The notes under the pieces are model-generated. The model searched no databases. It saw only the letters and a list, made by a program, of their open reading frames with translations, and was not told the origin of the DNA. This document shows, one piece after another, positions 21,921 to 59,567 of a stretch of 59,567 nucleotides of DNA. Numbering within the stretch: position 1 is the stretch's first letter; the number at the start of each line of letters is the position of its first letter. The DNA is from Psammoneis japonica (lineage: Eukaryota). The DNA lies in contig QPGO01000042.1 in NCBI GenBank assembly GCA_008632985.1, positions 496,001 through 555,567 of the forward strand. The letters run 5' to 3'. Made by a program: the position numbers and the translations under genes.

Positions 21921-22561
21921 GGTTGCAACTTTCAATTTGTGGTGCTATCTCTAAAACCAGTGCAACACAAAAACCTTTGGGGCTGCAATTGGTGCGCTTG
22001 CATCCAGACTAGATCTTATATGCGAAAATGCACGCCAAATTGCAAATACTGTGTAGTAAATGCGCTAAAGATCGCGACGTCAGGTAGGTCGTGATGCTCG
22101 TACTCATGCCGTGTAGTATCCGCGACCATGATGTCACACGGGTGGGACGAAGACGTGCAGACGAAAATCGCTGTTTGTGAGCGAGCGAGCGCTACTACGG
22201 CACCGGCAGGGCCCAACAGTCTTACGGAACATTAAACCAGGAACAGTCCTGACACGTCGCCGTTAAACCGAAATGGTCTAATTTTCATTGACTGCTCCAA
22301 GCATCCTCTACAGGAATTAGCACCAAGGCCACAGGCTCGGGTCAGTGGTTCTGGAAAATTAAACCAGCGTCGTTCAACACTCCGAAGCTGCTGCGCGCTT
22401 GCCGCGCACACCTCCTTTGCTCTCTCTTTTCCAGCTGTCTGCACTTCTCTCTTGACATTTCGAGCACTCACCCCCACCCCATGTTGTGGTTGTCACCTGC
22501 AATGGGCAGCACGGTGCTGTCTCTTTTCGCTCATTGTTGTCACAGCCGTTGTCAATCAACC

Positions 22562-23233
22562 ATGCCAGGAGGAAGTGCAGCTGCTCGAAATGATGGGCGT
22601 GTGCACCCCCATCAACGCAACACTGATGACTCTGCACTGATGGTCAGGGGCAACTTGGATTGGCCCCCAGACCTTGTCGAAAAATGCAATGAAACTGCGA
22701 GGATGACCATCGGCGACAAGTGCAGACGAAACTGTCGCCAACGACTTGCACGAACTGCAAAGTTTTGGAAAGAAAATGATCCTGATTGTTGTGCTGTTGG
22801 CATTCAACCGGTTTCAGTGGAAGATCTGGCTGATGAGACAAAGTGCTTTTTCAATTCTTGCCAAGAAGACCTCATGCATGCTGGCATGAATGACAAGTTT
22901 GTGTCACATTTTTTAGTGTCAAACAAGCTCAAGGAGGATGGAAAGCTCAAGTCATTCCAGGACATGCGGAAACACAAAAATGCCATCATGTGGGGTGCCA
23001 AGATGGTGTCTGCTTGCTTGCCTCAGAGCTTCTGTGAAATGTTCAACACTTTCCTTGCCGGGCACAAGAAGGAATTCGTGCAAGCAAAGAAAATGTGTGA
23101 AGTTGATGACAGCTCAGCTGATCCAATCCCAGTGTTGCTGCACAAGTTGATGCTCATGTGGGCCTTGGAGACAAACAACTTGTTTGTGTGGTTTTGGACC
23201 GTCATGCAATGGAATTTCATGGCCAGGTCATGA
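22562..23233 (+). mobile_element. Crypton-like (tyrosine-recombinase DNA transposon) 5' fragment, truncated and TpA-mutated
   Basis: 'FVWFWTVMQWNFMARS' resembles the stramenopile Crypton YR motif (xQWNLMAR); reading ends abruptly at 23233. Confidence 0.55.
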
Positions 23234-24138
23234 TGGAGTTGGAGCCGATGGAACTCTTCTTCATGCTCATCAATCGAACCGTCTTCAGTGGAACTGTGGC
23301 AATGCTTTGTTTTCGGGGCGGGCATCGTGCGGCGAAAGAGTTGGCCACGCGCCATGGCCTCACACTCTGCCATGGCCTCACACTCTGCTGGTGCCAGAAG
23401 TGGAGCAGTGACCAAACCAACTCAACCTGGTTTGTGCCCAATTGTTGGATGCACTTCCTTTTGCACTGTTCCCGATCACAAGTGCAAAAACAAGCAATGC
23501 AACAAGTGCATCCACTGCTTGTGCACGCAACGTTGCAGCTTGATGAGTGCAGAGAGTGAACTGAGCATGCATTGTTCAATTGCGCGCAAAGGCAGTGACC
23601 AGTTGTTTTGCACTTAATTGGCACAGTGTCATGGTTGCATTTTGCTTTTATAACGGGGTCACAAGAAGCACTGCTGGTGGTCGATTTGGTCTCCTTTTGG
23701 TGCCGACTGCCGATGTTGATTCATTGCTGGTTGACAAAGGGGGGGAACACGGTGCCACCGGTGCCTCTTCTGACTTAGAGAAAATTTGGAAGCACTGCTC
23801 ACTTCGTCGCAGCAATGTGGGAGGCTTTGCACTTTGCACAAATCAACGAAGTGACAGGTCTTGCAATCGAGTGAGTCAATCTTGTTAGACTGGGCTGGTT
23901 TAATTTTCCTTGCCACTCTGCAGCAGCTCAGAGCAAGCAAGCAAGCACTCGAGCGAGACGACAGATGCAACGCCACTTTTCTCTAGATTTTCAACTCTCC
24001 ATCGCACATCATTGAGATGCCCGCTTGTCAAAGCACTGAGCATCCCCATGGGAATTCACAGACTTCTGCCACAGGTGCCTTTGCCCCCAGCTGAGCCAAA
24101 GAAGACATTTTGCAATCTGAGTTTTGGAGGGAAAAACC

Positions 24139-24383
24139 TGACAGGATTTGAACAAGATTTTAGTTTGTCACACATGATCATGTGTGCTCTTAGTTCCACG
24201 TGCTTCATGCAATGCAGTTTGCTTTTGAGCCACACAGCTCACAAGAATGACAACAGTGGTGCAGACATCACAACACCAGTCTTTCGGCTCCTGCAACGGT
24301 CTCTGCAAGGAGACTCATCTGCCATTTGGACAGCAGCAAGGAGCTGTTGTTTTCTTCCACCCAGTCATCTTCAATTTCTGTCA
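24139..24383 (+). repeat. Copia 5' LTR
   Basis: Direct repeat of 30775-31019; TG...CA ends. Confidence 0.95.
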
Positions 24384-25220
24384 GATTGACAGTCTCGCTC
24401 ATTGTCACCCATTGAGCATTCATCATGGTCATCGAGAAATTTTCAATGATGCGCGCCGTTGGCGTTGGAAGCATGTGTCCACCTTCTTCACTGCTGGACA
24501 CTGGATTAAATCTGTGCATTTGGATTCATCCAACACCTCCCATCGTTAGACACATTTCTTCAACGGACATTTGTTTGGTCAGGAATTCCCGAATTCTCAG
24601 ACATCCGACATTCCGGATTCCCCACAGCGGATTCTACCCTGGTTGGCAGACAGACCAATGCATCCGCTCGAGCCCACGCCACGCGCACACGATGTAAACC
24701 CTTGACTGTGGCCCTGCTCCACTCATGCCAAGTCCACCGCTTCGTATCTGCACCAGATTGCTGGTCTTCTACAGTCCTGCAAGGTCCACGAGGACAACTG
24801 TGAGAGAAAGCAGTTTGTGATTGCAGCCTGCTTTGGGGCAAGGGTGCACATTTCCCGTGTTTGTTCATCCATCCACAGCGCCAAATTTGGCCGGCCTGAT
24901 CGGGCTGTCCAACCGACATAAAATGAGAACGGTTTGGAGGTCTTGTCCACCTCCAGTCAGCTTGTCAGCAGGGGTTTTTAACCCGTTGCTCCGCTCTCAA
25001 GCAACCCAAAGCGTCGCCAGCTGCAGGTTCAGACTTGCCGGCACAACTCTGCGGACCGGACAGGAAGCTTGGCACTTGACTACAAACAGGACATCACAGC
25101 CCGGTGGCTTCTGACTCATGAGACAGTTTGAGACTTCAAGTCAAGACTCAAGCCAAGTTTCAAGCCATTTCAAGCTCACCCTCTGACTCTAGCCAGTCCC
25201 GACACTCACCCAGTTACAAC

Positions 25221-28200
25221 ATGGTTCTCACCAGGCAGCAACAAATCAATGGCCTCGAGCACATCCCAGGCACTGTTCTGAATCAAGCCGCAGACAGTCC
25301 ATTGCGCTCTGCCCTCAACATTGATGGAACCGATTTGCATCAGGGCCTCTTTCCTTTTACTCCGATGCAACTGGATGCCCTTGTTTATGACGATGGCACC
25401 AATCAAATGCCCTTGCCACGTGGTTACAAAGCACAGATGGCTGCGCTGATTAGCCTGTGCATGGCAAAAGCACGCGGTGGCGCTGATGTTGGCAACAACC
25501 CTCAATTGTTCACACACAAGGAGTTCGCCGACTGTCGTCTCAGTCCTGAGCACGTGGCGTCCCTCTCCATGGGCAACAGCACCATCTGCTCCCACCCCTG
25601 GCTCGTCACCACCCAAACCACGTGACCCCGTGTGTGACTTTAAATGAGGCATCAAACGTGACCCACTCACCTTCGTGCTTCTCAAGTCTGACAAACAGTG
25701 GCACATGTGGCACACCTCCATTGTCGCACAGGCCTGCTCCCAGGACGTCAACCGCACTCTTGATCTGAAGCATGAGCCCTCCACAGCTGAGGACAAGGCC
25801 CTGTTCAACGAACAACAGAAGTGCATGTTTGCCATGTTTGAATGCATCCAGCAGAATGACAAAGGCAAGGCACTTGTTCATGAACATGTCGGCTCCTCTG
25901 ATGCTCAAGCGGTGTGTTGTGACCTGTCCAAGTGCGCCCTTGCTTCTGCTCGCACATCCCTGGAGTCCTCGACCCTTCTCATGCACCTCACCACTGCTTG
26001 CCTCAGTGATGGCACCTGGAAAGGATCCACTCATGCCTTCACACTTTGCTGGCAGGACCAGCTTTGCAAGTGTGAAGCTCTTGTCCCCGGTGCGGACCAT
26101 TTCTCAGCTGGCCAGAAACGTGTCATGCTTGAGAATGCTGTTCACCCCATCAAAGAACTCCGTTCAGCAAAGAATCAGGCCGACCAGTTTCGCACGCAGA
26201 ATGGCATGGGCCTTTCTTACGAGCAGTGCTGTGGACTTGTGCTTTCCACAGTGGCACAGTGCAACAACACATTTGCCCCCAAGATGGCTCCTTGCGCTCC
26301 GTGCCGTGCCATCTACAAACATGGCCTGGTCCCTGACGACCCTGATGACGACGTGTTCTTCGACATCGACAGTGATGTTGATGTCATCCAAGCTCATGCT
26401 GCGCAAACTCGCGGGCACTCCCTCACCAGGGAACAATGGCGTTGCATTCCGCCAGACCATCAGCACATTTGGGATGCTTTGCCCCAGTCCATCAAGGCCA
26501 TCATTCTTGGCTTGCGCGCCGCTCACACCGGCAACTGCCATGACTTGACGGCAGTCAACCTGCACGGACTCTGCATTGGTGGCGATGGCGATGTCAACTT
26601 GTCTGCCAACGCTCACAATCTTGCGTCAGCCTCCGCACAATCCGACGCTGTAGCCGATGCAGCCAATGCTAACCCCATTCTGGCTCATCTCACCAGGCGC
26701 AAGCCTCTGCCACCTGGCAACTTACAACGTCTCCTGGCACCTGAACGGCCTCCTTCCACCCATTCTGGAGAGAAATCCCCCGGATCTGCACCTTCCATCT
26801 GCTCTGGCATGAAGCCCAATGACACTGACATTGAGATCAACGGTCACAAATGCCATCGTGTCAACAACCACAATGTTGTCCACTCTGCCTTGACCCAAAA
26901 AATCGACTCGCAAAGGTGCCCTCGTGGATCGTGGTGCAAACGGTGGTGTCGCTGGTGATGATGTTCGTGTCATTGCTTGCACTGGTTGCAAGGTTGACGT
27001 CCAAGGCATCGACGATCACCAACTGGTTGACATTCCCATCGTCACTGTCGGTGGTGTCATCCACACACAACGTGGCCCCATCATTGCCATTCTTCATCAG
27101 TGCACCCACACTGGAAAGGGCAAGACCATGCGTTCTTGTGGTCAACTCGAGTGGTGCAAACACGATGTCAACGATCGGTCCATCAAGGTCCCCAATGGTC
27201 TGCAGCACATCACCACCATTGACGGATGTGTCATCCCCATTGACATCAAAGGCAGCCTTCCGCACATCGCCATGCACCCGCACACTGATGCCGAATGGGA
27301 CACCTTCCCTCACGTCATCCTCACTGGTGATGACACTTGGGACCCATCTGTCCTCAACCACCAGCTCACCGACGATGGGACGTGGTGTGATGCCGCATCT
27401 GACCTCCAGGTCGACCCAACCACCAACCTCTTTGACAAGTTCGGCAACTGTCACCACTGTCATGTCGTCAACAACACCATGCTTGCAGACTCCGTCCTCA
27501 ATGACCACCTGCTCCCAACATCCGATTTCTTCTGCGAATGCCATGAGCGCAAGATCAATCCAAAGGATCCTGACTTTGAGTCTCTGCGCCCTTGTTTTGG
27601 CTTTCTTCCGAAGGACACTGTCCGCCGCACTTTTGATTGCATGACGCAATGCGCTCGCATGCCCGCCAGCACACACTTGAAAAAGGCGCACCGACGCAAT
27701 GAACCTGTTGCCACTGACATGGTGTGCTCTGACACCCCCGCCGTTGACTCCGGCTGCACCAGTGCCCAGCTCTTTGTTGGCACCGAATCCCTTGTCACGG
27801 ACGTGTGCAGAACCAAGACTGACAAGGAATTCATCAACACGCTTGAGGACAACATTCGCAATGGCGGTGCCCCGTCCAAGCTCATCAGTGACCGTGCTCA
27901 AGTTGAGATCAGCAACAAAGCTCTTGGCATGCTTCGTGCCCTCTTCATCTCCAGTTGGCAAAGCGAGCCTCACCAACAGCATCAGAATTTTGCTGAACGT
28001 TGCTGCCAAACTTGAAGACCATGGCCAACACCATCATGGATCACTTCGGATCTCCAGCTTGCACCTGGCTGCTCACCCTGATGCACGTGTGCTTCATGCT
28101 CAACCACACGGCATCTGCCAAGCTCCACTGGTGCACCCCCACCGAAGTGCTGTCCGGCTCTGCTCCTGACATCAGCCCGCTCCTCCATTTTCAATGGTGG

Positions 28201-30787
28201 GAACCCATGTGCTGTCACCTGGATGATTCCAACTGGCCGTCCGAATCCCGTGAATTACGTGGTCGCTTTGTTGGCATTGCCAAACACGTGGGCCACCAAA
28301 TGACATTCAAGATTCTTTTTGATGACACTCAGAAGATTCTCTGCCATTCCAACGTGCATTCCACCCGTGATCCGTCTGCCCCAAACCTGCATCTTGATCC
28401 TCCTGATGAGAGATCTGCTGCACCCATCATTAAATCCCAGCATGACTCCAAGGCTTTGCCGGATTCACCAGATGGGGAGGCGATCAGGATGCCCAAAATG
28501 CCGGTCTTTGACCCTGAAGATGTCATCAGATGCACCTTCCTCATGAAGCCACAAGAGGATGGACAATGCCACAGAGCCCGCATCGTCAAAGCCGTTGAGG
28601 ACCATGACTGGAAAATCAGAGACAATCCTGAACCAGTCAAGTTCATTTGCTCCATCAACAATGACAAATGCAAGGAAGTCCCAGCCTGCAATGACATCAT
28701 GCACCACATCAAGCAAGAAGATGAGGACACTGCCCTCTGGAAGTTCCGATGCATTGTGTCACACAAAGGACCATTGCAACCCCATGATCCCTCTTGGAAA
28801 GGCTCAAGCTGCAATGTCATGCTTGAGTGGGAGAATGGAGAGGTCACATCCGAACCCCTTGCCATCATTGCCAAGGACAATCCCGTCACCTGTGCCATCC
28901 ACACACATGAGCATGGCCTCCTTGAAACTGAAGGATGGAGGCATTTTCGCAAGACAGCCCTGCATCAGAAGAAGCTGTTCCGCATGGCCAACCAAGCCAA
29001 GCCATGCTCCTTTCACACTGCGCCACAATGCAAGTGCGGGTGTGAAGTGCCACGAGACTGCAAGCATGCCTTGGCCCTGATGAGCACAATGGCAACCACA
29101 AGTGGGGAGACGCAATGGACCTCAAGATGACTCAGCTTGATGAGTGCGAGGTCTTCCACGACTGTGGACATTGCAAAGATTCCAGCACCCCACTGGGACA
29201 CAAAAAGATCTGGGCGCATCTTGTCTGTGACGTCAAACATGACGGATGGCACAAAGCAAGGCTTGTTGCCGATGGACACCTCACGGACGTGCCCGTCGAC
29301 AGTGTCTGTTCCGGAGCAGTGTCTCTTGCGGCCTGCGAATGATGATCTTCCCAGCCGAACTCAATGAACTGGAGACTTGTGCCACCGACATTGGGAACAC
29401 CCATCTCGAAGCTGCCACCAAGGAGAAACTGCACATCGCAGCAGAGGCCCCGAATTTGGCAAGCTAGAAGGACACATCCTTGTCATCCACAAGGCCTTGC
29501 ACGGACTCTGCAGCTCTGGCCTCAGATGGCATGAATGCTTTGCCGATTGCCTGCATGCTGAAGGCTTCTTCCTGTGCAAAGCCAAACCCGACATCTGGCT
29601 GCGCAGGAATGGTGACCACTGCGAACACGTGGCAGTGCATGTGGACAACCTGGCCTTCACCATGAAGGACCCCCAGGCTTCGCAGACACCCTCATGGAGA
29701 AACACAAGCTCAAGCTCAAAGGCACTGGACCATTGGAGTTCCATCTTGGTTGCGATTTCACCCACAATCCAGATGGCACCCTGTGCCTTGCTCCCCGCAA
29801 GTGCATTGAGTGCATGGTTGACAACTGCGTGCGCCTTTTTGGGGAGAAGCCCCGCACTGATGTGCTTTCACCCCTTGACAAGGGCGACCACCCTGAGCTT
29901 GACACTTCTGGATTGCTCGAACCCGATGGCATCCACCAACTTCAATCCTCAATTGGTTCCCTGCAATGGGCCGCATCCCTTGGTTGCATTGACATCACTG
30001 CGGCTGTCATGTCTCTGTCTGGCTTCCGTGCAGCACCCCGCCAGGGCCACCTAGACTGTGCCAAATGTGTCCGCGGATTCCTCTCCAAGATGTGTCATGG
30101 TGCCCTCCAAGTGCGCACTGAGGAGCCCAACTGTTCAGACCTTCCTGAGCCCGTGCATGACTGGGCCCAGTCTGTGTGTGGGGAGGCAGAAGAGCTGCTC
30201 CCGCAAGATGCGCCTGAGCCACTTGGCAAGTTCATCACCACAACGCACTGCATCGATGTGAACTTGTTCCATTGCATGCTCACTGGATGCTCTGTCACCG
30301 GCATTCTCCATTTCCTCAACAAGTTTCCGGCTGATTGGTTCTCTGAGAAACAAGCCACAGTCAAGACTGCAATGCATGGATCCAAGTTTGTCACCGCAAG
30401 GACGTGCGTTGAGCAGATCATTGACCTGCGCATCACTTTGCGTTGCCTTGGCATCCCCATTTGTGAAACCTGTCACATGTTTGCCGGGACAACAAGTTGG
30501 TTGTGGACAGTGCCACCATCCCGCACTCCAAGTCACACAAGCAACACACCACCCTCTCATTCCATCATGTGTGTGAGGCAATCGCCTCCAGTTTTCTTGA
30601 GTTTCATTTCATCAAAGGGTCCCGCAAACCGGCTGACATCCTCAGCAAGCATTGGGGTTGCTCCCAAATCTGGAACCTCCTTCATCCTCTGATGTTTTGG
30701 AACTTCGATCCCGAGGCTTTCAACCAATCCGACTTCGAATCTGTCACTGTTGACCCCTCAAGCAAACTGGGGAGTGACAGGATTTGA
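25221..30787 (+). pseudogene. Copia gag-pol, frameshifted, Tyr-depleted
   Basis: PR 'DRGANGG'; IN 'VATDMVCSD', 'LISDRA', 'QNFAER'; RT 'HKARLVADGH', 'KALHGL', 'VHVDNL' (YVDD position); RH 'PADILSKHW'. Confidence 0.9.
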
Positions 30788-49600: not shown

Positions 49601-52236
49601 TGTGCTCAATCGTGTGTTGAGCAGACGGTCCAGGCATCAACAATGCAATGTTTGTGTTGCATGTCAGTTTTGATCTGCTTGTTGCAGGGCACGACACGTT
49701 TTGAAAAGCATCGCACTTTCTCCTCTTCGGAACAACTTCCTTCACGCACCGACACGTAAAAGTTCCATCCCAGCTGTGCCACTTTATCTGAGTGTCATCT
49801 GCGTTCCTTGCTGAATTATTTGGACACGAAGCAGCTGGTTGCCTGTGACTGCAGTCACCTGGTTTGAGCTCCTCTCGTTTCCTTTTCCTTGACAGCACGT
49901 CCAGTTCCTCGTGTGGGTTTTTTTTACGCATTTTACGTAACTCTGCGCATTTGGGAAAACACGACTTCGTAACGTGCATGTGATGGTTGTAAGCTGCGTC
50001 CGGCACATGTGCCTCTGTTGTCCCTTGCAGACCACTTCGCTGGCATTGTACACACATTGCTTTCAGTCGCTTTGCATGGTTGTCTGGACAGCGAGTCAGG
50101 CCAGGTGCACGGTGCCGTGACTGTGAAAAGCTTTCTACAAACTCAACGTTTGTCCAGTGCTTGGTGCAGTGACGACAACAAGCAAACATTCTGTTCTTCG
50201 ACTGCTGGCCGTCTTTGTGCCTCAGGTTTCTTAGCTGTTGGTCGTCTGCTGCTTTTGGAGAGGTGCAACACATTTTTGGTGCTGCACAGTCATGATCGGA
50301 TGCTTCACGCAACGCGTTGGTGCTGAAGTCCTCGCTGCAGATTAATTCCGTGCTGCAGATCTTCTGAACTGTGTTGGTGAGGCACTCAGCACCTTCGCGT
50401 CGGATCTGTCTCATTGGCGAATGCAGTTTCTCTCTTGCATTGTTGATCGATGCAAACCAGATCTGCATGTGTCCGTGTGCTGTCAGACGCCCCTGCTCCT
50501 CAACTGCGGCTAAAAATGCGGCTGGCCTGCCAATGTAGAAGTTAAAGTTTTCTCTTGGTTGGTTGGCGCTCAGATCCCAACCCACTGCCTCTTCCATTGC
50601 AATGTCAAACAAGCACTCGAGTGCAAAGGCTGTTAGACTGGGAAACTTTAGACGCAGTTCATTGCGTTGCTCAGCCCTGCTAGCAAGAATTTCGTCCATC
50701 AGTTGTGTCACGTCTTTGTTTGGGTCCAGGATGACACCCAAGTGCAGTTGTGCAAGAAACGAATTTGCATCGTCCGGACTGACGGTTAAGAAAATGCCAC
50801 CCTGACCAAAATGATGCTGACAAGTTTCGGCGTTTCTCCTCATTTTCTTTGCTGCTTCGTCACTGTGTGGCAGAGACGCAGATGCAACGTCGAGTGCACG
50901 CAAAAAGTGGTGCCTGAGTCCCGCCCAAGTTGCGATCACAAACAGCTCTGTCCACATCGTCCACTGTCAGTTCGTTTGCAAACTGTGCAGCCTGATTCTT
51001 GTCCCTGACTTTCCACCCTGCGCTCTGCAGCATCCTTTGCTTCATTGTCAAGTTGCAGCACATTAACACGAAGAGCTGCTCGTGGAAGTGAGGCTGGGAA
51101 ATCCGTGCCAAGTGGTCGGCATGGTGTGCAAGGTTGGTGCCATCTGTGAGACTTCCGTCTTTCTTCATTCTCGTCTCATTGATTCCTCCTCTGCCAAAAG
51201 GAAACTGCAGCAGACACGCGTCAATGAAGTTGTTGCCTTTGAAATCACTCGCAGATTCTTTGGACAACTGTGCTTGCACCTCTAAATCAAATCTGTTGGC
51301 AGTGGCTTCGTGTGCAAGATCTTTGAAGCAGTCCAGGTTGCACTGACCACCGGTCGCAGGAGACATGGTTCCATCAGGAAAGCAAATGTGAAATGACTCT
51401 GAGGTCTCAACATTTGCACTTTCTCCTTCTTCTTTGCCGGTGCCATCGACAAGTGCGGGATTCCGCAGATTACGCCTGGCTTCGTCTAGATTTGTCTGTT
51501 GGCACACCCACTCTTGGTTGTGGTGCAACAGCCATTCCATCGCCCTTGGCATGCAGTGCGTCCCAATTCTGTTCTTTGAATGCACAAGTTGTCTTTGCTC
51601 CGGAGTCATCTTTCCAGTCATCAGTGCAATCACATTCTGATGTAAATTCAGTGCGTCGAAGTGCACAACAGTTCTTACGATGCTTTGCATCTTGACTTTG
51701 TAGTGTGTCAGACTTCCCTGAAGCTTCTTCTGTTTGCCGCCAAGGCAACTGAAGCAGCATCCGCATGTTTTCACTGGTGTGAGCATTGCCAATTCTGCTT
51801 GGGTTAGAGACAACAGTTCATGCGGTGGGGTGCCGAAACAGCAGTTGTTCGCCATCGCGTACATTGGCACAACGGCTCTTCCCAGGCTTCTTCGGCATTC
51901 GCTGCAGCAAGTGAATCCGTCGACGCATCGTCTGTCTTCCTGTGCTGCGCATTGGGCATGGGGAGAAAGCAGCAGGTCTTTGATCCAATCAGCATCTTCA
52001 TGCTCTACAGTGTGGCAGGACTTGAGACGATCAGATGCGCTGTTCCAGTCTGAAGGGGTGAGCAAGTTTCTTGCTGATTCCAATGTTTCGAGCGGCAAGC
52101 AGCAAACTTCTCTAGGTTTCAGCAGAACGTCACAGACCAAACATGCGTGTGGTCTAAATTCTCCGTCTCTGTGCAGACAAAGCATCTCAAACTTTCCATT
52201 GATTGCATTGCAAACACGGGAGTTGGCCTCGTCCAT
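46604..52236 (-). pseudogene. Helitron-type Rep-helicase (HUH Rep + Pif1 helicase), split over three frames
   Basis: Rep motifs 'IFLTVSPDD', 'VEEQGRLTAHGHMQIW', 'FPFGRGG'; Pif1 motifs 'GAGGSGKS', 'TGVAATILKGDTIH', 'DEISF', 'GDLRQLEPV', 'HKLQG', 'VVLSRV'. Confidence 0.92.
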
Positions 52237-52365
52237 TTTAATTTAAGCTGATGCTTTGGCTCAACAAATTTCAAGAAGTTGCTCAGTGAAAACAGTTGTT
52301 TTTTCAGTGTGATCACCGTGAAGCTGCGATCGGTGCTGTCCAATCACCACAGCGATGTGTGTTTT

Positions 52366-53000
52366 CTCGCCACCTGTGGCACTGCGACTGGTGTCGTCCA
52401 GTCACCGCAGTGGCTCTGTCCAGTTGATCAACGAACCGCGTCGGTGCCACCCGTTCACCGCAGCGCTGTGTCGTCTCTCACAACCTGTGCAATCAGGTCA
52501 CTGTGAGTGCTGCGACTGGTGCTGTCCAGTCACCGCAGCCGAGTCAATCAGTTGCTTGACGAACTGCGTCGGTGCCACCCGATCACCGCAGTGTTGTGTC
52601 ATGTTCTCACAACCTGTGCGATCAGGTCTCTGTGAGAGCTGCGACTGGTGTCGTCCAGTCACCGCAGCTGAGCTTGTGCGTTGTCTCACAACCTGCATTG
52701 CGAGGTGCAGCGCTGTGTTGTTTGCTCACAACCTGTGCAATCAGGTCGCTGTGAGAGCTGCGACTGGTGTCGTCCAGTCACCGCAGCCAAGTGAACCAGT
52801 TGCTTGACGAACTGCGTCGGTGCCATCCGATCACCGCAGCGTTGTGTCGTGTTCTCACAACCTGTGCGATCAGGTCTCTGTGAGAGCTGCGACTGGTGTC
52901 GTCCAGTCACCGGCAGCTGAGCTTGGTGCGTCATCTCACAACCTGCGTCACCAGGTCACTGTGAGAACTGAGAACTACGATCGGTGTGGCCCAATCACCG
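52366..53000. repeat. Hairpin-rich tandem array (~248-bp higher-order unit x2, internal ~129/79/40-bp subunits)
   Basis: 'ctcacaacctg' recurs at 52477, 52606, 52685, 52725, 52854, 52935; 'ctgcgactggtg(tc/ct)gtccagtcacc' recurs five times. Confidence 0.9.
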
Positions 53001-53159
53001 TAGTTGGATGCTTTTCGTTTCCCTTTGCGCAAAGGTTCTGTCACAAAAAAGTGAGACGAAAGTGTGCCTCTTTCACCTCGACGGAAGAGTGACGTGTGCG
53101 TTCCTCCCACGTCCTTCTTCGCACCAGACGCACGACATCCCACTTAGTTTCGTCGACGT

Positions 53160-53262
53160 TGAACATCCCATGGGATGAGATTTGGATCTTGTTCAAGTTG
53201 TTTCGACCATCTGCTCTGAACATTCCATGGGATGAGATTCGGATCTTGTTCAAGTTGTTTCG
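53160..53262. repeat. 57-bp-period duplication
   Basis: tgaacatYccatgggatgagattYggatcttgttcaagttgtttcg occurs twice. Confidence 0.85.
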
Positions 53263-53808
53263 GCAATCTTGGTGGTGGGCACAGCTTCACGCAAATTCCG
53301 CAGAATCACGCTTTAACGAGTGGCGGGGCAGTTGAGTTGGTCGTGTGGCAATGACAGTGCGATTGACGTCATTCGTGTTTCCAAAGTGCGCGCGAACCTC
53401 CAAATGGGTGATGGGCCCACCTTGGCTAACTGCCGGTGCAGTGTGCAGTGACAGCGATGGCGTCGACCGTTTGGCGACTAGATTTCGTGCGCGATGGCCG
53501 CGCGGCAGTAACGGCTGAAATGCACACAAAGCACGGACGGAATTGCACGTGATTTTACGCATTTTCAGCAAACTCAGTGCGACTTTGCGTGCTCCGATCC
53601 TTGCATCTGTTTTGTTCAAATTGAACCCACACACCACTTGCAAGTGCTGACACCTGGAAGGTTGCCTTGTTGCAGTTCGACGTGTTTGAATCTGGTTGCT
53701 GACGTTGCCAGTTCTCCTTGGCATGATGTGCGCAGCTCTGCTGGGTCTTTCTTGGCACTTCTGAACGATCGCACTTTTTGTTCCCATAATTTCTCTCCGA
53801 CTGATTCG

Positions 53809-54679
53809 ATGGCACGCAAAAGAAACACAACGACCTCCCCGGCTGCGAAAGCCAAAGTCGCCGAAACCAAACAGAAGAAGGCAAAGACGAAGTTTTCTGA
53901 TGCTCTGTTGAAGAAACTAAGTCCGCCCCGCAAGACCAACGGCTTGACCGACGACGACCTTAAACCGGAAGACTGCCTTGCCAAGCACGGGTTCAAGCTT
54001 TCCAAATCCGCCGGTTCTGACGATGGCAGCCATTCTGACAAGGACGCCTCCTGCGCTGCGCCACCATCACTGTCGGCCGCAAGAAAGGCGTCGTTTTTCG
54101 TCTCCAAGCCAAGAATCCCCTTTTGACCAATGTTTGGTCGGAGAAGGTTCTGTTTGACAACCTTGGCAGCAGGACTCCGTGGGCGGTTCAAGTTGGATTC
54201 CACCCTTACGCTGGCAGGTGGGTTCACGAGGGCGAGTTGCAGACGAACGCCAAGAACTGCGCCGTGCGTCTCTTCTTCATCTTCCTCGAAGAAGTCCCAA
54301 CGATGCCAAAGTGCGCCGGCCTCGGAAGTGCATTGCGAAGCAGCTGAACGATGACCCTGAGAACAACACCGAGGTCTTCGTTGAAGACGACTTCTTCTGG
54401 ATGAAGGATGCTGTTTGGTCCGAAGTGATCGGCAACGAGGCGGCGCTTGCCGAGCTTCAGAAGGAAGGTGGTCAGTTTCACATCGGTTGGTCTTCCCAAA
54501 ACAAGAACTTACTTCACAGTTGCTTCTACGAGGGGTCGTTGCCTGTGGAACTCTGTCGTCTCATTGGAGCTCCGGCAGAAGAAGCTGGAGAAGAGGCCGA
54601 CGATGATGTCGAGCTCAACTGCGAAGTTGACCTGAACGTCGATGACGACTTGGTGCTTCAGGACAGCGACGAAGACTGA
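53809..54679 (+). pseudogene. Unknown protein with basic N-terminus and acidic C-terminus, frameshifted
   Basis: Three successive coding-like frames: MARKRNTT..., ...TNVWSEKVLFD..., ...DDFFWMKDAVWSEVIG...DSDED*. Confidence 0.55.
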
Positions 54680-54766
54680 GTTGTTTTTTTTTTTGCCGGT
54701 GCAGTGTAAATTTGCAAATGTTTGGCAAACTAAGTGTCGATTACAACTCAGCTTTCCTCTGTCTCT

Positions 54767-55702
54767 TCAAGCATTTGCCATCTCCGACGACAACTTTACG
54801 TTACCGCGAAACAATGGCGAATTGAGTGGAGCAACTAGCGTGTGACGTCCAGCACAGTGACAGCAAAAAAACAGTTCAGTTGAGTTCTTAAGTAAAATTG
54901 GCCATTTCGCGACGGGTGAATGCTTCCGTTCCAAGTGTGTCGGAGTGGGACGTCGCATGTGCTGGCTGGTTGACTGAGAAGTCTCCTCTTTCTTGGTGCA
55001 CTTGTGGAAGACGAGATGTTTCACGTCTCCGCTGTGCCACAAAAGGTCGCCATCATGGCAATCCGCCGTGAAGGACTCGCACATCCACTCTCCCGCGTAC
55101 GACGCGAACAGCGGATCTAGCGCCACCACCACGGTCCCAGCACGACACAACTTCGAAAGCATCGCCTCTGCCTTCTGCTGTGTGTTCTTGTCGTCGACCA
55201 TGCGGGAGTTGCAGTTGTTGAAGAACACCTTGAGTCCTTTCTTTTTCCACAAAGGAGCCAGCCTCTCGTCCAAGAATGACTTGTTGATCAACTCTAACCC
55301 GCCGTTCGAGCGAAGGCCAGCACGATGAGCCCAACGTACAGCCTCTTGGTGACGATCGTGGTCGGCCTCGATGCTCACCACGGTGCAACGGCGACGAAGT
55401 AACTTGAGCCCGATGCTGGGTCCGGCAACTCCCCCGCCCATGTCGACAGATGCATCGCAGGTGTGATTCACGCCAAGAAGGCGTTCGTTCAAAAACACTT
55501 CGCTGCTCAAAGCGAAGCCAACTTCGCCGCCGTGCGAAGATCCGCTTCCGTCTCCGGAGACACGCCTGCTCTGGAACGCGGAGTCCGGAGCCGTTTGAAG
55601 ACAAAACTCCCCAACACTTCTGCAACGATGGTTCATCGCATCCAACCTTGTGGCAACATCAACCTTGCTTGCAGTGGGTTCGACCAGACGTCGCGTTTCC
55701 AA
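54767..55702 (-). pseudogene. Class I SAM methyltransferase, DOT1-like
   Basis: Motif I 'DASVDMGGGVAG', motif II 'VVSIEADHDRH', 'KVFFNNCN' (cf. DOT1 VxFxNN), 'RAGTVVVALDPL'. Confidence 0.6.
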
Positions 55703-56083
55703 ACCAAACTGTGACGTGCGCAGAATGCGTAAAATTACCGTCGCGCCCTCTGTGCGCGCGAAATTTTCAAACGCGGCGTGCTGCCTCTACCTGCGCATGG
55801 AGCAACGTACAAAGTCATTTTGGACAGATGTGCAGACGCGTTGAAACAATGAGACGCCTTTGGGCGATAAAATTTGTTTTGAATCTCGGCCTGCTTCTCA
55901 TCGTTGCCGCACTTGCATGTCCGTGTAATTCAAACGCACGAGCTGGCACGGCACGCAACGCACTTCTACGCGAGAACTCGCACTGAGATTGCCGTGGGAT
56001 GATCCTCCCTCCGCGGAGACAAAAACAACGCGACAACACTTCCGTCATCACATTTTGAAACACATTTCAAATTGAGACACACC

Positions 56084-57511
56084 ATGTCGCAACTACCTCG
56101 TGCCTCGCTGCGTCGTCCTCCAACGACAAGCACTTGTCGCATGAGTTCAAGCCGGTCTCGACAGTGTGGGGGTTTGGGACGTGCAGCTCGCAGCCCGACA
56201 ACAAGCAAATGCTTCTCGCGATTGGGTTTCGACCCCACTCCCCTGGAGTCCGCCGGTCCCTGTCAACAGAGTTTTGCTTTGGGTGCTCTTGAGGCAACGG
56301 AAAGCAGACACATCTCTCGATTGGGTTTTGACCCCACTCCCCTGGAGTCCGCCGGTCCCTGTCGACAGAGTTCTGCTTTGGGCACTGTTGAGACGACAGT
56401 GACAGTGTCAAGCAGCGGAACATTTGCCGGCAAGTTCGCACACACGTTCTCTGCGAACACCGCATCGTCAATGCGCACCAGGACATGCGAGAACATGTTG
56501 AGGGCTCAACTGCCACTTCGCAAGGCCCACCGCAGCCGCAGGCGAATCCGCAGCCGCGCCAGCAGGAAAACATCCAAGATTGCTCGCCTCGTTCCACTCG
56601 CACCGTGCGCCACTGAGAGTCTCTCCGTGCACTGCGCAGCTGGCCACACTCTGGTTTGTGACGGCGACTACACTCAGCCTGCACCACCTTGTCTTGCTGA
56701 CATTGACTTTGCCGAATTGGCTCCTCTGCTCGTCTGTGACCCTGTGCTCGATCTGAAGCCTTTCTTTGGCTTGGACGGTTGCCGCTGCGACAACACCTGC
56801 ACCCTGCTGCCGCGTTCTGCTGTGGTGTTCAGCTCCCCCAACCCAGCAGAACTAGTTGCTCAGTGCCGAGCGCTCGAAGCACTAGAATGCTGCACCGCCC
56901 AGTCCACCGTGCGCGGCAAACAACGCGTTACCTTCATGGAGACGGACAGGAGCAAGCATTCCACGATTGGCCTGGCTGCCACGAGGGACGCTCGAATTTC
57001 TTGCAAGCAGCCTGGCACAGCCGACCAACACACTCACCACCTCACCAGACTTCTTTCACGCATGGAGCACCTTGTCAATGAGTGCGTGGACTGCCATCCT
57101 CAGGGCATCGCTCGTGTCAAAAAGTTTCACAACTGGAAATCCCTGGTGCGGTCAGATGGCATTTTCTCCTCTCTGGCGGCTGGGCGCAATGTCTTCCTCA
57201 ACGCCCATCGGGACCAGGACTTCTTCCTGTCAGCAGTCACCGTGGTGGGAGTCCCTCCGTCCGGCAGCTGCACCATGAATGACGGGATTGTGGCGCACTT
57301 CTGCTTCCCTGCCGAAGGCATCTCCGTTGCACTCCGGCTTGGTGATGTCATCATTTTTAACCCCACCAAGTGCCACTGCATCTCCAGCAGGACAAACTCA
57401 AACGACGAGTTCTTCTGCGTGTCTCTCTACCTGAAGAGTGCTGCAGTGGGCAAGAACAACAATTCAATCCCCCTTTCTCTAGAGGAAGAGACCATTCTCA
57501 GGCGACTGTGA
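56084..57511 (+). CDS. 2OG-Fe(II) dioxygenase, TET/JBP-like (TpA-mutated, probably inactive)
   Basis: 'NVFLNAHRDQD' (HxD), 'VALRLGDVIIFNPTKCHCIS' (distal His), 'CVSLY' strand; DSBH-like spacing. Confidence 0.7.
   Translation: MSQLPRASLRRPPTTSTCRMSSSRSRQCGGLGRAARSPTTSKCFSRLGFDPTPLESAGPCQQSFALGALEATESRHISRLGFDPTPLESAGPCRQSSALGTVETTVTVSSSGTFAGKFAHTFSANTASSMRTRTCENMLRAQLPLRKAHRSRRRIRSRASRKTSKIARLVPLAPCATESLSVHCAAGHTLVCDGDYTQPAPPCLADIDFAELAPLLVCDPVLDLKPFFGLDGCRCDNTCTLLPRSAVVFSSPNPAELVAQCRALEALECCTAQSTVRGKQRVTFMETDRSKHSTIGLAATRDARISCKQPGTADQHTHHLTRLLSRMEHLVNECVDCHPQGIARVKKFHNWKSLVRSDGIFSSLAAGRNVFLNAHRDQDFFLSAVTVVGVPPSGSCTMNDGIVAHFCFPAEGISVALRLGDVIIFNPTKCHCISSRTNSNDEFFCVSLYLKSAAVGKNNNSIPLSLEEETILRRL
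56213..56392. repeat. 99-bp tandem duplication in the 5' part of the dioxygenase ORF
   Basis: 'SRLGFDPTPLESAGPC..S.ALG..E' encoded twice. Confidence 0.9.
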
Positions 57512-57524
57512 CAGTGCAAAATAA

Positions 57525-57622
57525 CTTGCTAAATTTGCGTAAATTTGCTGACTTTCTGTGCTCAGGCGACTGTGCAGGCACCTGCTAATTTGCTAGATTT
57601 GCGTAAATTTGCCGACTTTCTG
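57525..57622. repeat. Short direct repeat between the convergent dioxygenase and SET ORFs
   Basis: ttgctaRatttgcgtaaatttgcYgactttctgt occurs twice. Confidence 0.8.
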
Positions 57623-57733
57623 TTCTTCCTCGTTCCCATTTTTCGAACCACAACTGGGGCTACGCCTTTCCAACTAATGCTGCAGTTTCGCTGAAAAACA
57701 CCAACACACTGTGCTGCTAATTTACAGAGCACA

Positions 57734-59567
57734 CTACACGGCAAACGTTTTGCCAGACGCAGAGCTTCTCCCCCCCGACTTGGGGAGTAGACGCGATTTC
57801 TTCTTCCGATTCATGGCACCCGACGTCGCCTTCCTCTTCTTCTTCTTCTTCTCCGATTCGTCCAAGTTGCATCTGCAGAGAAATTCCTCCCCGGGCATGA
57901 TTCGCTTCGTGACTGCCAAGCACCCGTCGTTGTAGAACTCGCAGTTGTTGTCCGCGTGTTGGCTTGCCTTGATCTTCTTCTTGTCCTTGAATGACTCGGT
58001 GGCATCGTTCACGCAGTGCATTCCGAGGTAGAGTGGATGGGAATTCTTGTTCCCTGGACCGCTAAAATCAAGCGGTTTTGGCTCCACTGTGACGCAGCAG
58101 CCCTCGCTGTCACGGATGGTGGAGCAGCACACGCTGTGGTCTTCTCCAAACTTGCTGTCGTGGTCGCACCACGAGCAGCTCCTCGTCGTACCGGGCACCC
58201 TGGGGCCCACGTAGATTCCAACCGTGCTGCCTTTCTGGAACTGGCGCAAAGCAAAAAAACCAATGCCTGCGCCCCTCCGTTGCGATGCGCGTAGCTCGCC
58301 CACCTCCACCTCCTTGGGGCCTGCGGAGCGAACGGACTTTTCGAGGCAAAACAACGCAGGTTGAAGTGACACGGCGCCTCATCCAAATGTGCACACTTCT
58401 GCACTTGCTCTCTTCACGAGATGGACCAGTGCGAGCGACCACCCCGCTTCGAAAGCCTCGACGGCGGTCTTGAACACTTTGTTGCTCTTCGGCGTCGAGT
58501 CTGGGATGCCCCTCTCGCCGACTTCCGTGCGGCACTCCACACCCACTTGCAGTGTTCGCCGTGAGCATTCGCGACGGCTTCAGGGTCGCTCCTGATGCAC
58601 CCCAGTTCTCCCAGCGCGGGGAACCAGAGGTCGGGATCATTCGGCGCATCCTTCATCAGGCACATGGACTCCTGGAATTTATCGGATTTTTCGTGCCGCA
58701 ACACCCAGTCCCACAAGTCGAATGACGGATCGTTGGGGTCCGGAAATTGCTTTCCTTCTTCTTCCTCTTCCGCCGTTGCTTTCGCGACCACTTTGGCCGC
58801 GGGCTTGGCTGCCTCCTCGCTTTTGCCGCTGCAAAAAGGTGGACCTCCGGTTTCACAAAGGTGGCCTGATCACCCACCAACTCGATCTTGCAACCGGCCT
58901 CAAGGAGCTGCTCGGCGGTGCAACCCAGCTGCTGTGCTTCATTCCAACCACAAATTTGAAAGGNTTGGCTCCGGCGGCACGGCTTTCTCCTCTTTTCAGT
59001 TTGGGACTGCGCCGGCTTCTCCGACATCCTTGCGCGTTCGGACTCGACGGACACACCCTCGGCACTTCCCTCGGCGCCAAGTGCAGTCATGGCAGCTGCC
59101 NNNNNNNNNNNNNNNNNNNNGAGTTCTGCCATTGGCACTTCCCTCGGCGCCAAGTGCAGTCATGGCAGCTGCCGCCGCGCCTTCGGCGCCCGTGAGTTCT
59201 GCCATGACTTCCGAGCTGCTGCATCCTCTGCTTTGCCAGACGCAACGATGTTGTCCTCCGCCATTCTAGCACCGTGATGACAGAGCTGCACTCACTGCTG
59301 TGTGGTGTGCTGCTTTGTTCCAGCCGTTGGCGATCCACATCCTTCTGCGCACGCAAACGTGTGACACTTTGCACCAAATTCCACGTAGTCGTCTGCACCT
59401 GTCTGCGTCCGTCTTCACTGCTGTGCGCACTACGCACTGCAGCGCACCCTTTCAAACCTTCATCAATGTTTGTTTTTTCCTTCCTTTTCCTTTTCTCTTC
59501 TTCTTCATCTGGCTGGGAGGAACTGCTGGACAGCCGGCCTCATTTCTCGGCATGTTGCCACGCAGAA
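57734..59567 (-). pseudogene. SET-domain protein (SET at ~57880-58300), frameshifted, 5' part beyond gap/window
   Basis: 'GAGIGFFALRQFQKGSTVGIYVG', 'LGMHCVND', 'NNCEF', 'TKRIMPGEEFLCRCN' (GEELxxxY position is now C). Confidence 0.75.
59050..59215. repeat. Tandem repeat spanning a 20-N assembly gap
   Basis: ggcacttccctcggcgccaagtgcagtcatggcagctgcc on both sides of the N run. Confidence 0.75.

Follow-up and report, generated by a model that had tools for sequence, protein, structure and literature searches.

In ascomycete fungi, RIP leaves dense transitions that are confined to mobile or repeated DNA, end at sharp edges and inactivate elements after insertion. The change is C:G>T:A, mostly at CpA, so that TpA and stop codons are created. 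In animals, the deaminase-type APOBEC3 and ADAR systems inactivate mobile or viral sequences through context-specific clusters of transitions; APOBEC yields C>U, and ADAR is a metazoan enzyme that acts on dsRNA. A closer parallel is found in the chlorarachniophyte (rhizarian) Bigelowiella natans. According to the sections of the preprint cited here, two integrated viral regions gained 231 single-nucleotide mutations in mutation-accumulation lines, of which 230 were A>G or T>C, all of these changes in the viral regions occurred at TpA, and RT and DDE domains were over-represented in coding sequences low in TpA (Mettrop et al., bioRxiv 10.64898/2026.01.13.699255).

The locus described here belongs to a diatom (stramenopile), Psammoneis japonica (GCA_008632985.1, QPGO01000042.1, positions 496,001-555,567 of the forward strand). 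This stretch of 59,567 nt is the window to which all counts refer; homologues and public assemblies were used for comparison.

A sharply bounded TpA-poor block

In 2-kb bins, the observed/expected ratio (o/e) of TpA is 0.52-0.77 over positions 1-22,000 and 0.02-0.34 from 22,001 to the end (0.02-0.22 from about 22,360 onward), while TG and CA reach o/e values of 1.5-2.08 in the TA-poor part. There are 1,020 TA dinucleotides in 1-22,300 and 284 in 22,301-59,567, where about 1,705 would be expected at the control rate. These counts agree with the initial annotation, in which TpA was abundant to about 22 kb and then nearly gone, with TG/CA in excess. The edge is sharp, with the final close-set TAs at 22,309, 22,318 and 22,360 and the following one only at 22,914. 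To its left lies ordinary gene-bearing DNA (1-22,360; CpG o/e 0.83-1.08), which serves as control; Pfam assigns ATG22/MFS, PHD, ribosomal L25, ABC transporter and MCM10 domains to its ORFs, and every named relative of the ABC transporter ORF is a diatom protein. To its right, the TpA-depleted, TG/CA-enriched block (22,361-59,567) continues past the end of the window, so its right edge is outside view. Only 0-2 TA are left per 500-bp bin over 26-33.5 kb and 38.5-45.5 kb, and the longest TA-free run measures 2,352 bp (43,155-45,507), as against 270 bp in the control. The gain of TG plus CA approximates the summed loss of TA and CG (per kb, 95.0 lost vs 106.1 gained, 93.9 vs 93.0 and 59.8 vs 72.0).

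The leftmost element in the block is a Copia-type LTR retrotransposon (24,139-31,019, plus strand; LTRs 24,139-24,383 and 30,775-31,019), flanked by the 5-bp target-site duplication AAACC. Its polyprotein remnant (25,585-30,700), split over about five frame pieces, matches residues 125-1871 of a 1,881-aa homologue with an RVT_2 domain (P0291; tblastn), and 2.2 TA per kb remain over 25.5-31 kb. A saturated stretch of unassigned origin follows (31,020-33,923; 1.7 TA per kb), which is single-copy by read depth and has no Pfam match in its ORFs. Next to it is a younger LTR element of unassigned class, element B (33,924-38,562, plus strand; LTRs 33,924-34,290 and 38,194-38,562), with GATC at both flanks, only partial depletion and no Pfam match in its ORFs. 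The second saturated stretch of unassigned origin (38,563-45,400), called Gypsy in the initial annotation, holds the 2,352-bp run and no Pfam match among ORFs of at least 110 aa; its 1.3 TA per kb, or about nine in all, bear out the earlier estimate by eye of about ten over 38.6-45.3 kb. A Helitron lies on the minus strand (46,610-52,203), its Rep/helicase protein remnant in three frame pieces with PIF1, AAA_30, Helitron_like_N and DUF6570 domains (Pfam) and a tblastn match to residues 1-1686 of a 1,692-aa homologue (P0020). The remainder (52,301-59,567) is TpA-poor, CpG-normal and GC-rich (8.8 TA and 73.2 CG per kb), with two tandem repeats (D3, D4), a TET/JBP-like ORF (56,003-57,508, plus strand) and a weak SET-like ORF (57,737-58,378, minus strand; SET at E=0.017, short of the Pfam cut-off). 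Of the four transposon classes named initially, Helitron and Copia are thus upheld by Pfam and tblastn, and Crypton and Gypsy found no Pfam support among 71 ORFs scanned. The description of the pattern as transposon-restricted goes further than the data: what is seen is a sharp-edged block, and since its most depleted stretches are single-copy and contain no recognisable element protein, targeting of transposable elements as such is a candidate reading only.

Direction, timing and a second process

TA was the ancestral dinucleotide, because conserved Tyr columns now read Cys or His. In the Helitron helicase this holds for 20 of 22 such columns (C 14, H 6, F 1, Y 1), and Tyr makes up 0.3% of residues vs 3.28% in 40 homologues; the whole Helitron gives 13 of 17. 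For the Copia polyprotein the figure is 21 of 24 (C 13, H 8, F 2, L 1, Y 0). Overall, the query proteins contain 0-0.3% Tyr and their relatives 3.3-4.0%. When the helicase was compared with the homologue consensus, 94 single-step mismatches included 34-36 of TA>TG/CA, four other A:T>G:C and eight of CpG type; A:T>G:C change in this protein is thus almost confined to TpA. The polarity is opposite to that of fungal RIP and 5-methylcytosine decay, as originally claimed: TpA and the stops TAA and TAG are destroyed and GC rises. A further difference from RIP is that the saturated stretches are now single-copy, although the dense transitions, sharp edges and inactivation after insertion are alike.

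The LTR pair of element B dates the change. Of 369 aligned columns 344 are identical, and the 5' and 3' LTRs contain 20 vs 6 TA and 22 vs 21 CG. Of the 20 TA of the 5' LTR, 14 correspond to TG (7) or CA (7) in its 3' counterpart, and the reverse is never seen (binomial p=1.2e-4); the further differences are three TG/CA doubles, one CpG change, two other transitions and no transversions. The Copia LTRs show six double differences, TG vs CA. Since the LTRs of these single insertions differ, with target-site duplications intact in both elements, and since mutation also affects a Helitron, which moves without RNA or reverse transcription, the change postdates insertion and struck chromosomal DNA. 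The two products, TG and CA, lie mixed together without long same-strand runs (runs-test z -1.99 to +2.09): both strands are struck. The proposals that sister LTRs diverged after insertion, that a DNA transposon is among the targets and that both products arise are thereby supported.

Loss of CpG accompanies the loss of TpA, an observation absent from the initial annotation. CpG is almost absent in 31-33.9 kb (4.5 per kb) and 38.6-45.4 kb (6.0 per kb) vs 55.5, with an o/e minimum of 0.03 in the block (2-kb bins); it drops partially in Copia and Helitron and not at all in 52.3-59.6 kb. In the Copia protein, 18 of 38 conserved Arg columns are now Cys, His or Gln. Between the element B LTRs, one of 22 CpG has changed vs 14 of 20 TpA (Fisher p=1e-5). 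CpG decay is thus a slower second process, separable from TpA loss. Deamination of 5-methylcytosine is at work in this block too and likewise leaves TG and CA; however, it is unable to remove TpA, is much slower here and is spatially separable, 52.3-59.6 kb being TpA-poor with normal CpG.

Flanking bases give no coherent picture. In three partly depleted zones, 13 ATAN-type sites survive vs 442 in the control, and 149 vs 578 other TA (Fisher p=1e-20), which points to ATA/TAT being lost first. Tyr codons give TAC>TGC 17 vs CAC 7 and TAT>TGT 4 vs CAT 6 (Fisher p=0.13).

Alternative explanations

Modified bases are known to give systematic nanopore miscalls, and TpA in heterochromatin could bear such a base, miscalled as G or C, in a genome that truly reads TA. 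The sole public run containing the stretch (X1) may share its sample with the assembly and has no recorded library type; its Logan contigs are a separate k-mer assembly, with independence and read chemistry judged from a k-mer depth of about 60-73 (about 65x). Over the single-copy parts, these contigs differ from the assembly at 13 letters in 7,749 bp, ten of them at CpG and only one restoring TA (four over 30,992-33,592 at depth 67-71; five over 38,563-41,000 at depth 61-67). Because the X1 assembly has the same TA-poor sequence, a base-calling artefact, raised initially as a possible refutation, is very unlikely. Strand-wise miscalling should also yield CG and TA calls, yet the CpG minimum coincides with the TpA minimum; sister LTRs of one family in one block would not be expected to differ by 20 vs 6 TA; and Tyr-less Copia and Helitron proteins are also known from other public assemblies (ENA, JGI/IMG, Logan). 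That the elements were TpA-poor from the start through selection or codon usage, and never mutated, is barely credible: TpA is mildly low in most genomes, the control part included, but the replacement of conserved Tyr, the broken reading frames, the 14 TA separating the element B LTRs and the equal depletion of antisense and non-coding DNA all argue against it. ADAR-like A-to-I hyper-editing of element transcripts, with copies born mutated after reverse transcription, would suit Copia and element B, which replicate via RNA, and ADAR-type enzymes prefer a 5' U, as stated in the cited part of the B. natans preprint (bioRxiv 10.64898/2026.01.13.699255). It is nevertheless highly improbable, given the struck Helitron, the TA>TG/CA differences between LTRs of single insertions, the mixture of TG and CA where editing of a single transcript strand should leave just one of them, and the saturation of single-copy DNA between elements. 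Error-prone, Pol-eta-like repair synthesis drawn to silenced chromatin also appears improbable. The A>G errors of Pol eta fall at WA motifs, of which TA is one of two; the other, AA/TT, is undepleted in the block (AA o/e 0.98-1.67, TT 0.99-1.38), and non-TpA changes of this type are rare in the helicase.

Thymine chemistry is the next candidate after adenine deamination, although an unlikely one. A TET/JBP-type dioxygenase would oxidise the thymine of TpA, and the resulting 5-hydroxymethyl- or 5-formyl-uracil would pair with G and fix T>C, a miscoding modification. As TpA is its own reverse complement, T>C there reads CpA on one strand and TpG on its complement; A>G in one strand equals T>C in the opposite one, and sequence alone cannot separate the two. 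In dinoflagellates, 5-hydroxymethyluracil is found mostly at TpA and TpC, and G is a mispairing partner of 5-formyluracil. The ORF at 56,003-57,508 has 23 of 30 ESM Atlas feature matches to Tet_JBP (PF12851) clusters, at 0.95-0.96, and its C-terminal part shows an H-R-D ... H pattern, which we take to be a mark of the TET/JBP family. Against this, the ORF has no Pfam Tet_JBP match even at E<=10, a PDB sequence search returned nothing relevant, and its AlphaFold single-sequence model is unusable (mean pLDDT 33). It is TpA-poor and almost without Tyr, and hence probably dead. Its presence in the block is weak evidence, since TET/JBP genes are frequently transposon-borne. In addition, 5-formyluracil also causes transversions, and the 23 substituted sites in the LTR pair of element B include none.

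A possible TpA-directed genome defence

A DNA-level, TpA-specific A:T>G:C process in this diatom, a RIP-like defence of the same kind as in B. natans, is in our view the probable explanation. Such a process would convert A:T to G:C specifically at TpA, the strand struck setting whether TpG or CpA results. Its target would be a mobile-element block, sharp-edged and probably silenced, that is struck after insertion while neighbouring genes are spared, and TpA loss would run far quicker than CpG decay, near to completion. Elements would be inactivated through missense change (Tyr>Cys/His, Ile>Val/Thr/Met) and not through stops, and TAA and TAG would be erased; the process would be a genome defence like RIP with opposite polarity. 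As to the enzyme, the most likely candidate, put forward tentatively, is a TadA/ADAT2-type deaminase that would convert adenine to hypoxanthine in DNA and require a 5' T. This A>I chemistry would yield precisely A>G, and the 5' T requirement would be explained because the natural tRNA target of these enzymes, A34, is known to follow U33 always. No ADAT2/TadA-type deaminase gene is found in the window, and the link to the pattern here is that of a candidate only. An ADAT2/TadA-type adenosine deaminase with DNA activity, BjADAT2, is reported from amphioxus (PMC10354150), and the B. natans preprint cites such enzymes too. APOBEC3 and ADAR are alike in their transition clusters, but here a DNA transposon and integrated DNA are struck, on both strands.

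As far as the cited sections of the preprint go, the likeness to B. natans lies in near-exclusive A>G/T>C change at TpA with both TpG and CpA produced, in foreign DNA being struck and ordinary nuclear DNA spared with scarce TpA and abundant CpA+TpG as the lasting trace, and in patchiness: it is episodic there, in some lines only, and here one LTR is struck and its sister spared. The same sections also show differences. The inserts are NCLDV and virophage there, whereas Copia, a second LTR element and a Helitron are recognisable here; the NCLDV region has a Rho of 0.45, as against near-saturation here (o/e 0.02-0.05). CpG decay runs alongside here, and site survival suggests ATA/TAT-first loss; CpG, 'trinucleotide' and 'flanking' are absent from that part of their text. 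Moreover, mutations were measured de novo in B. natans, while the process here is known from its sequence pattern alone. A full-text literature search found no account of TpA hypermutation in diatoms, in line with the initial annotation, to which no such diatom system was known, although the phenomenon itself has been described in B. natans. Because the same pattern occurs in an unrelated alga, where it was first reported in 2026, this form of genome defence may be widespread.

TpA loss in the block and its mobile elements

Throughout positions 1-22,000 the TpA observed/expected (o/e) ratio stays at 0.52-0.77 per 2-kb bin; every later bin of the window lies at 0.02-0.34, with the lowest values (0.02-0.07) at 26-34 kb and 38-46 kb. 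The o/e ratios of TG and CA are 1.3-2.1 in the block and 1.5-2.08 where TpA is lowest. Both results bear out the initial annotation, which had described TpA as abundant in about the first 22 kb and nearly absent thereafter, with TG and CA in great excess. There are 1,020 TA in 1-22,300 and 284 in 22,301-59,567, where about 1,705 would be expected at the control rate; many 500-bp bins of the block hold 0-2 TA against approximately 23 expected. The longest TA-free run measures 2,352 bp (43,155-45,507) in the block and 270 bp in the control. A sharp edge separates genes from block at about 22,360, with TA at 22,309, 22,318 and 22,360 and then at 22,914, and the block extends to the end of the window. 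AA, TT and AT show no corresponding loss in the block. In the control part, every named relative of an ABC transporter ORF is a diatom protein and no match exceeds 64% identity (Fragilaria crotonensis 55%, Cyclotella cryptica 51%, and several from Thalassiosira, Skeletonema and Odontella). An Atlas search had given bacterial ABC clusters, and it is these named matches that identify the host as a diatom, distinct from Bigelowiella. Assembly gaps occur near the window end as a single N at 58964 and a run of 20 N at 59101-59120.

The block contains a Copia element (24,139-31,019) bounded by LTRs of 245 bp, with its 5-bp target-site duplication (AAACC) preserved. What is left of the polyprotein aligns to residues 125-1871 of a homologue of 1,881 amino acids (aa) that carries RVT_2. 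A further LTR element, element B (33,924-38,562), has LTRs of 367-369 bp, GATC at both flanks and no recognisable protein. A Helitron on the minus strand (46,610-52,203) carries PIF1, Helitron_like_N and DUF6570 and aligns to a homologue of 1,692 aa over residues 1-1686. Long homologues of Copia and the Helitron, 34 in all, matched by tblastn at 25582-30730 and 46610-52203 and nowhere else. Pfam, applied first to 18 ORFs of the block and then to 71, returned nothing beyond the Helitron domains, RVT_2 as a weak match (E=1e-3) and sub-threshold noise. No Pfam family rose above noise at 22.4-24.1, 31.0-33.9, 38.6-45.4 and 52.3-59.6 kb, and none of these stretches resembles the homologues used. 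Thus, of the four transposon classes named in the initial annotation, Copia and Helitron are confirmed, and 'Crypton-like' and 'Gypsy' stay unconfirmed, the 71 ORFs having given neither any Pfam support. About 10 kb of saturated sequence, in which TpA and CpG are both almost gone, has no origin recognisable by Pfam; the same block encloses Copia, the Helitron and a further LTR element.

The combined frequency of TAA and TAG falls from 41.6 per kb in the control to 2.5-3.1 per kb on both strands of the saturated zones, and TGA is almost the sole remaining stop in 22301-59567, where spurious long ORFs appear on both strands. ORFs of at least 150 aa number 56 in the block (1.5 per kb) against 13 in the control (0.58 per kb). 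Owing to this loss of TAA and TAG, long ORFs in the block do not count as evidence of genes, and gene finders will over-call. One spurious ORF of 390 aa, for example, runs antisense to Copia at 26861-28033.

CpG is almost absent at 31-33.9 kb and 38.6-45.4 kb, its o/e ratio falling as low as 0.03 in the block. It is partly reduced in Copia (39.3 per kb against 55.5 in the control) and in the Helitron, and shows no reduction at 52.3-59.6 kb (73.2 per kb), although this zone is TpA-poor. Zone by zone, TA lost plus CG lost approximately equals TG plus CA gained, the mass balance closing once CpG is included. These joint losses show two superimposed processes that give the same products and are spatially separable. 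At 38 conserved Arg columns of Copia, His is found nine times, Cys seven times and Gln twice, and these changes are CpG decay on the same element. TpA is lost much more quickly than CpG from the same stretch of DNA: in the element B LTRs, 14 of 20 TpA have been lost against 1 of 22 CpG (Fisher p=1e-5). Two tandem duplications, at 52477-52912 (188 bp, two copies, 95% identity) and 56203-56397 (96 bp, two copies, 86% identity), have zero TA, and their copies differ mostly at CpG.

The last zone also holds two ORFs of possible chromatin-related function. For the ORF at 56003-57508 (+), 23 of 30 ESM Atlas feature matches are clusters carrying PF12851 (score 0.95-0.96), in which 19-53% of members carry Tet_JBP. 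The likeness lies chiefly in residues 300-502, and the translation has an H-R-D ... H pattern; the mark of the TET/JBP family is a double-stranded beta-helix fold with an HxD...H iron site. This ORF gave no Pfam match even at E<=10, nothing relevant in a phmmer search of PDB and no relative in metagenome contigs, and its single-sequence AlphaFold (AF2) model is unusable (pLDDT 33). It may be a TET/JBP-type dioxygenase, and is probably a dead copy, since it is nearly Tyr-free itself. A second ORF, at 57737-58378 (-), has a weak SET match (E=0.017, 16 bits, Pfam cut-off 22.4). Together, the TET/JBP-like and SET-like ORFs suggest that 52.3-59.6 kb may be a mobile element with chromatin-modifier genes.

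Direction, timing and target of the mutations

The ancestral state can be read from conserved tyrosines, as TAY>TGY replaces Tyr by Cys and TAY>CAY replaces Tyr by His. The Helitron helicase was compared with 40 relatives of at most 45% identity, a conserved Tyr column being one with Tyr in at least 60% of relatives. Tyr content is 3.28% in these relatives and 0.3% in the window copy, which at the 22 conserved Tyr columns has Cys 14 times, His six times, and Phe and Tyr once each. Similarly, 17 conserved Tyr columns over the whole Helitron hold Cys (8), His (5), Tyr (3) and Phe (1), and 24 of Copia hold Cys (13), His (8), Phe (2), Leu (1) and no Tyr. Tyr is absent from all 358 residues of the Copia RT/RNase H ORF, compared with 4.0% in 150 relatives. 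The elements thus began with a normal complement of TA and were inactivated by missense change, and the earlier proposal of an ancestral TA giving both TG and CA products holds, since Tyr has changed both to Cys (TGY) and to His (CAY).

One base change can explain 94 of the 136 mismatches of the Helitron helicase to conserved columns. These comprise 22 TA>TG, 12 TA>CA and two that could be either TA>TG or a transversion (34-36 of TA type), against only four other A:T>G:C changes; the excess of T>C/A>G at TpA over other contexts, on which the initial annotation depended, is therefore evident. The rest are eight CpG-type changes, nine other G:C>A:T changes (two also explicable by transversion) and 37 transversions, which are ordinary divergence from relatives no more than 45% identical.

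Both LTR elements retain target-site duplications (AAACC for Copia; GATC at the flanks of element B); each therefore derives from one insertion event, at which its two LTRs were still the same. Element B now has 20 TA in its 5' LTR (33924-34290) and six in its 3' LTR (38194-38562). Fourteen TA of the 5' LTR are TG (7) or CA (7) in the 3' LTR, with no case of the reverse (two-sided binomial p=1.2e-4). The other differences are three TG-versus-CA doubles, one CpG change and two other transitions; over 23 substituted sites there are no transversions, and T>C/A>G changes outnumber the reverse by 18 to five. Because the sister LTRs of a single insertion differ by loss of TA, the process acted after integration. 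Either it is patchy at a sub-kilobase scale of a few hundred bases, or the 5' LTR of element B was protected. The Copia LTRs (24139-24383 and 30775-31019) are 87% identical and show six TG-versus-CA doubles, approximately the number expected if some 11 ancestral TA had been resolved independently.

Helitrons transpose without an RNA or reverse-transcription step. That the Helitron is affected, that TG and CA are intermixed and that LTRs changed after insertion together show that the process attacks both strands of chromosomal DNA, as the initial annotation had argued, and does not act on RNA or during reverse transcription. A runs test of TG/CA order in eight regions, including the control, gave z from -1.99 to +2.09 and no long same-strand runs; a processive single-strand signature is undetectable by this test after saturation. 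The hypermutation acts on transposons here, to near saturation, and that it is real, DNA-level, TpA-specific and active after insertion is probable.

The survival of TA depends on its flanks. Across three partly depleted zones (17.2 kb in total), there remain 12 ATAA and a single site among ATAC, ATAG and ATAT, 13 in total against 442 in the control; all other NTAN number 149 against 578 (Fisher p=1e-20 versus ATAN). The best survivors are TTAA, CTAA, GTAA and CTAG, whose frequencies are 0.21-0.85 times those of the control. A 5' A (a 3' T on the other strand) thus marks the TA that are exhausted first. In the element B LTRs, the base after the changed A is T (6), C (5), G (2) or A (1), against C (8), A (7), G (6) and T (5) at the same position of unchanged strands, a pyrimidine thus following in 11 of 14 cases against 13 of 26. 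Among Tyr codons, TAC became TGC 17 times and CAC seven times, and TAT became TGT four times and CAT six times (p=0.13). A single-flank rule for the changed A was rejected, as survival puts ATA/TAT first and the Tyr codons give no significant preference.

Alternative explanations and the candidate enzyme

Modified TpA miscalled as TG or CA would mimic such a pattern, and sequencing run X1, the sole public run containing the stretch (0.77 of sampled words), bears on this; it may be the assembly's own sample. Two other runs of the same sample contain next to none of the sampled words, and the public-run word search listed no RNA run with the stretch. Contigs assembled independently from k-mers of the X1 reads (Logan; depth approximately 60-73) carry the TA-poor sequence, with 13 differing letters over 7,749 bp of single-copy parts of 21,001-41,000. 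Ten of the 13 are CpG<->TpG/CpA, which suggests allelic or strain polymorphism from ongoing CpG deamination, and one, at 23,149, restores TA where the window has TG. Among the 40 listed of 1,379 differing places, the window has TG/CA and the run CG in 11, the converse in nine, window TG/CA and run TA in three, window TA and run CA in one, and other differences in 16. Copia and element B are highly repeated in X1 (summed depth 4,000-70,000), the repeated-element copies differing from the window copy by 1,214 transitions and 151 transversions, counted by place; the saturated stretches are at single-copy depth (approximately 60-130). Miscalling by strand would, moreover, be expected to give CG calls too, but CpG reaches its minimum in the very places where TpA does, and an artefact is thus highly improbable. 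CpG decay by 5mC deamination fails as a sole explanation, having no power over TpA and being uncoupled from it at 52.3-59.6 kb. ADAR-type RNA editing followed by retrotransposition was rejected because the Helitron is affected and sister LTRs of single insertions differ. The initial annotation had also listed Pol-eta-like WA-motif mutagenesis; this candidate was discarded, since the other WA motif, AA, and TT are undepleted and only four A:T>G:C changes lie outside TpA against 34-36 at TpA.

Fungal RIP makes C:G>T:A transitions and creates TpA and stop codons. The polarity in the window is the opposite, as the initial annotation had recognised: TAA and TAG fall and Tyr becomes Cys or His. With regard to the duplication that triggers RIP, Copia and element B are highly repeated here and the saturated stretches are now single-copy. 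Adenine deamination at TpA by a TadA/ADAT-type enzyme would give pure A>G change, and such a deaminase, plausibly needing a 5' T, is a tentative candidate with somewhat less than an even chance of being right. In tRNA, the TadA/ADAT target A34 follows U33, which makes the need for a 5' T plausible. The main rival, a miscoding thymine modification at TpA, is considered unlikely, though not negligible; the TET/JBP-like ORF could bear on it, and TpA is its own reverse complement, so that the adenine and thymine routes leave the same sequence.

Other organisms and implications

Proteins in public assemblies carry a similar mark. Of 139 Copia relatives of at least 150 aa from the representative search, eight (P0319, P0374, P0415, P0363, P0382, P0377, P0314 and P0388) have Tyr of at most 0.53% and Cys plus His of 9-11%. 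At eight conserved Tyr columns they hold Cys (20), His (16), Phe (5), Arg (2), Tyr (1) and one gap, while the remaining Copia matches have Tyr in 631 of 844 cells. Their sources are ENA, JGI/IMG and Logan assemblies. The Helitron relatives P0108 and P0099 show the Tyr-less pattern in part. A DNA scan with P0374 found one relative (L001, 60% identical) with normal TpA (o/e 0.56), on a contig other than that of P0374. Judged from the proteins alone, the same hypermutation probably occurs in other organisms or samples.

A literature search on diatoms or on TpA-type mutation in transposons returned nothing on diatoms, in keeping with the earlier statement that no such diatom system was known, and only one relevant report, a preprint on the chlorarachniophyte Bigelowiella natans. 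In mutation-accumulation lines of this alga, 231 of 302 nuclear single-nucleotide mutations fell in integrated NCLDV and virophage; 230 of the 231 were A>G or T>C, and every A>G/T>C in those viral regions sat on TpA (bioRxiv 10.64898/2026.01.13.699255). The viral-region rate is given as approximately 6e-7 per site per generation, raised about 1000-fold; RT and DDE domains are over-represented among 324 coding sequences of low TpA, and a DNA adenine deaminase resembling ADAT2 is the enzyme proposed (bioRxiv 10.64898/2026.01.13.699255). That text does not contain the words diatom, CpG, flanking or trinucleotide (bioRxiv 10.64898/2026.01.13.699255). The two cases share a restriction of change almost entirely to A>G/T>C transitions (no transversions in the LTR pair) and a TpA-only target, giving TpG (7) and CpA (7) between the LTRs. 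The long-term trace required of a process of this type, low TpA with high CpA and TpG, is present in the block (TpA o/e 0.02-0.22). The TA/TG difference from X1 at 23,149 and the much larger loss of TpA than of CpG in one LTR are slight hints at a raised rate in the diatom as well. The diatom block therefore probably records a process of the B. natans type, in a lineage far removed from that alga.

For genome analysis, the divergence of 13% between the Copia LTRs is largely hypermutation, mostly as TG-versus-CA doubles, so that LTR dating would greatly overestimate insertion ages here and, if the process is shared, would be inflated in diatom genomes. Annotation of transposons by protein profiles fails on saturated copies, and Tyr-less transposon proteins offer a cheap screen for TpA hypermutation in other taxa.

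It is possible, at slightly less than even odds, that diatoms and chlorarachniophytes share a dedicated genome-defence mutator that recognises silenced mobile or foreign DNA and acts at TpA, and which is possibly SAR-wide. Such a mutator would deaminate adenine, or otherwise miscode A:T, at TpA in chromosomal DNA; it would run to saturation, kill elements through Tyr>Cys/His and erase TAA and TAG, and it would inflate LTR ages and leave Tyr-less transposon ORFs across public marine assemblies. If true, it would be the functional mirror image of fungal RIP. As two distant hosts show the signature, a comparison of gene content between genomes with and without it could find the enzyme, which, if real, would be of interest as a natural DNA A>G editor and possibly the first defence enzyme known to edit DNA adenine naturally in a eukaryote. 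Should the process be the same as in B. natans, this form of defence would extend beyond one species to two or more algal lineages that are far apart, of which one dominates ecologically.
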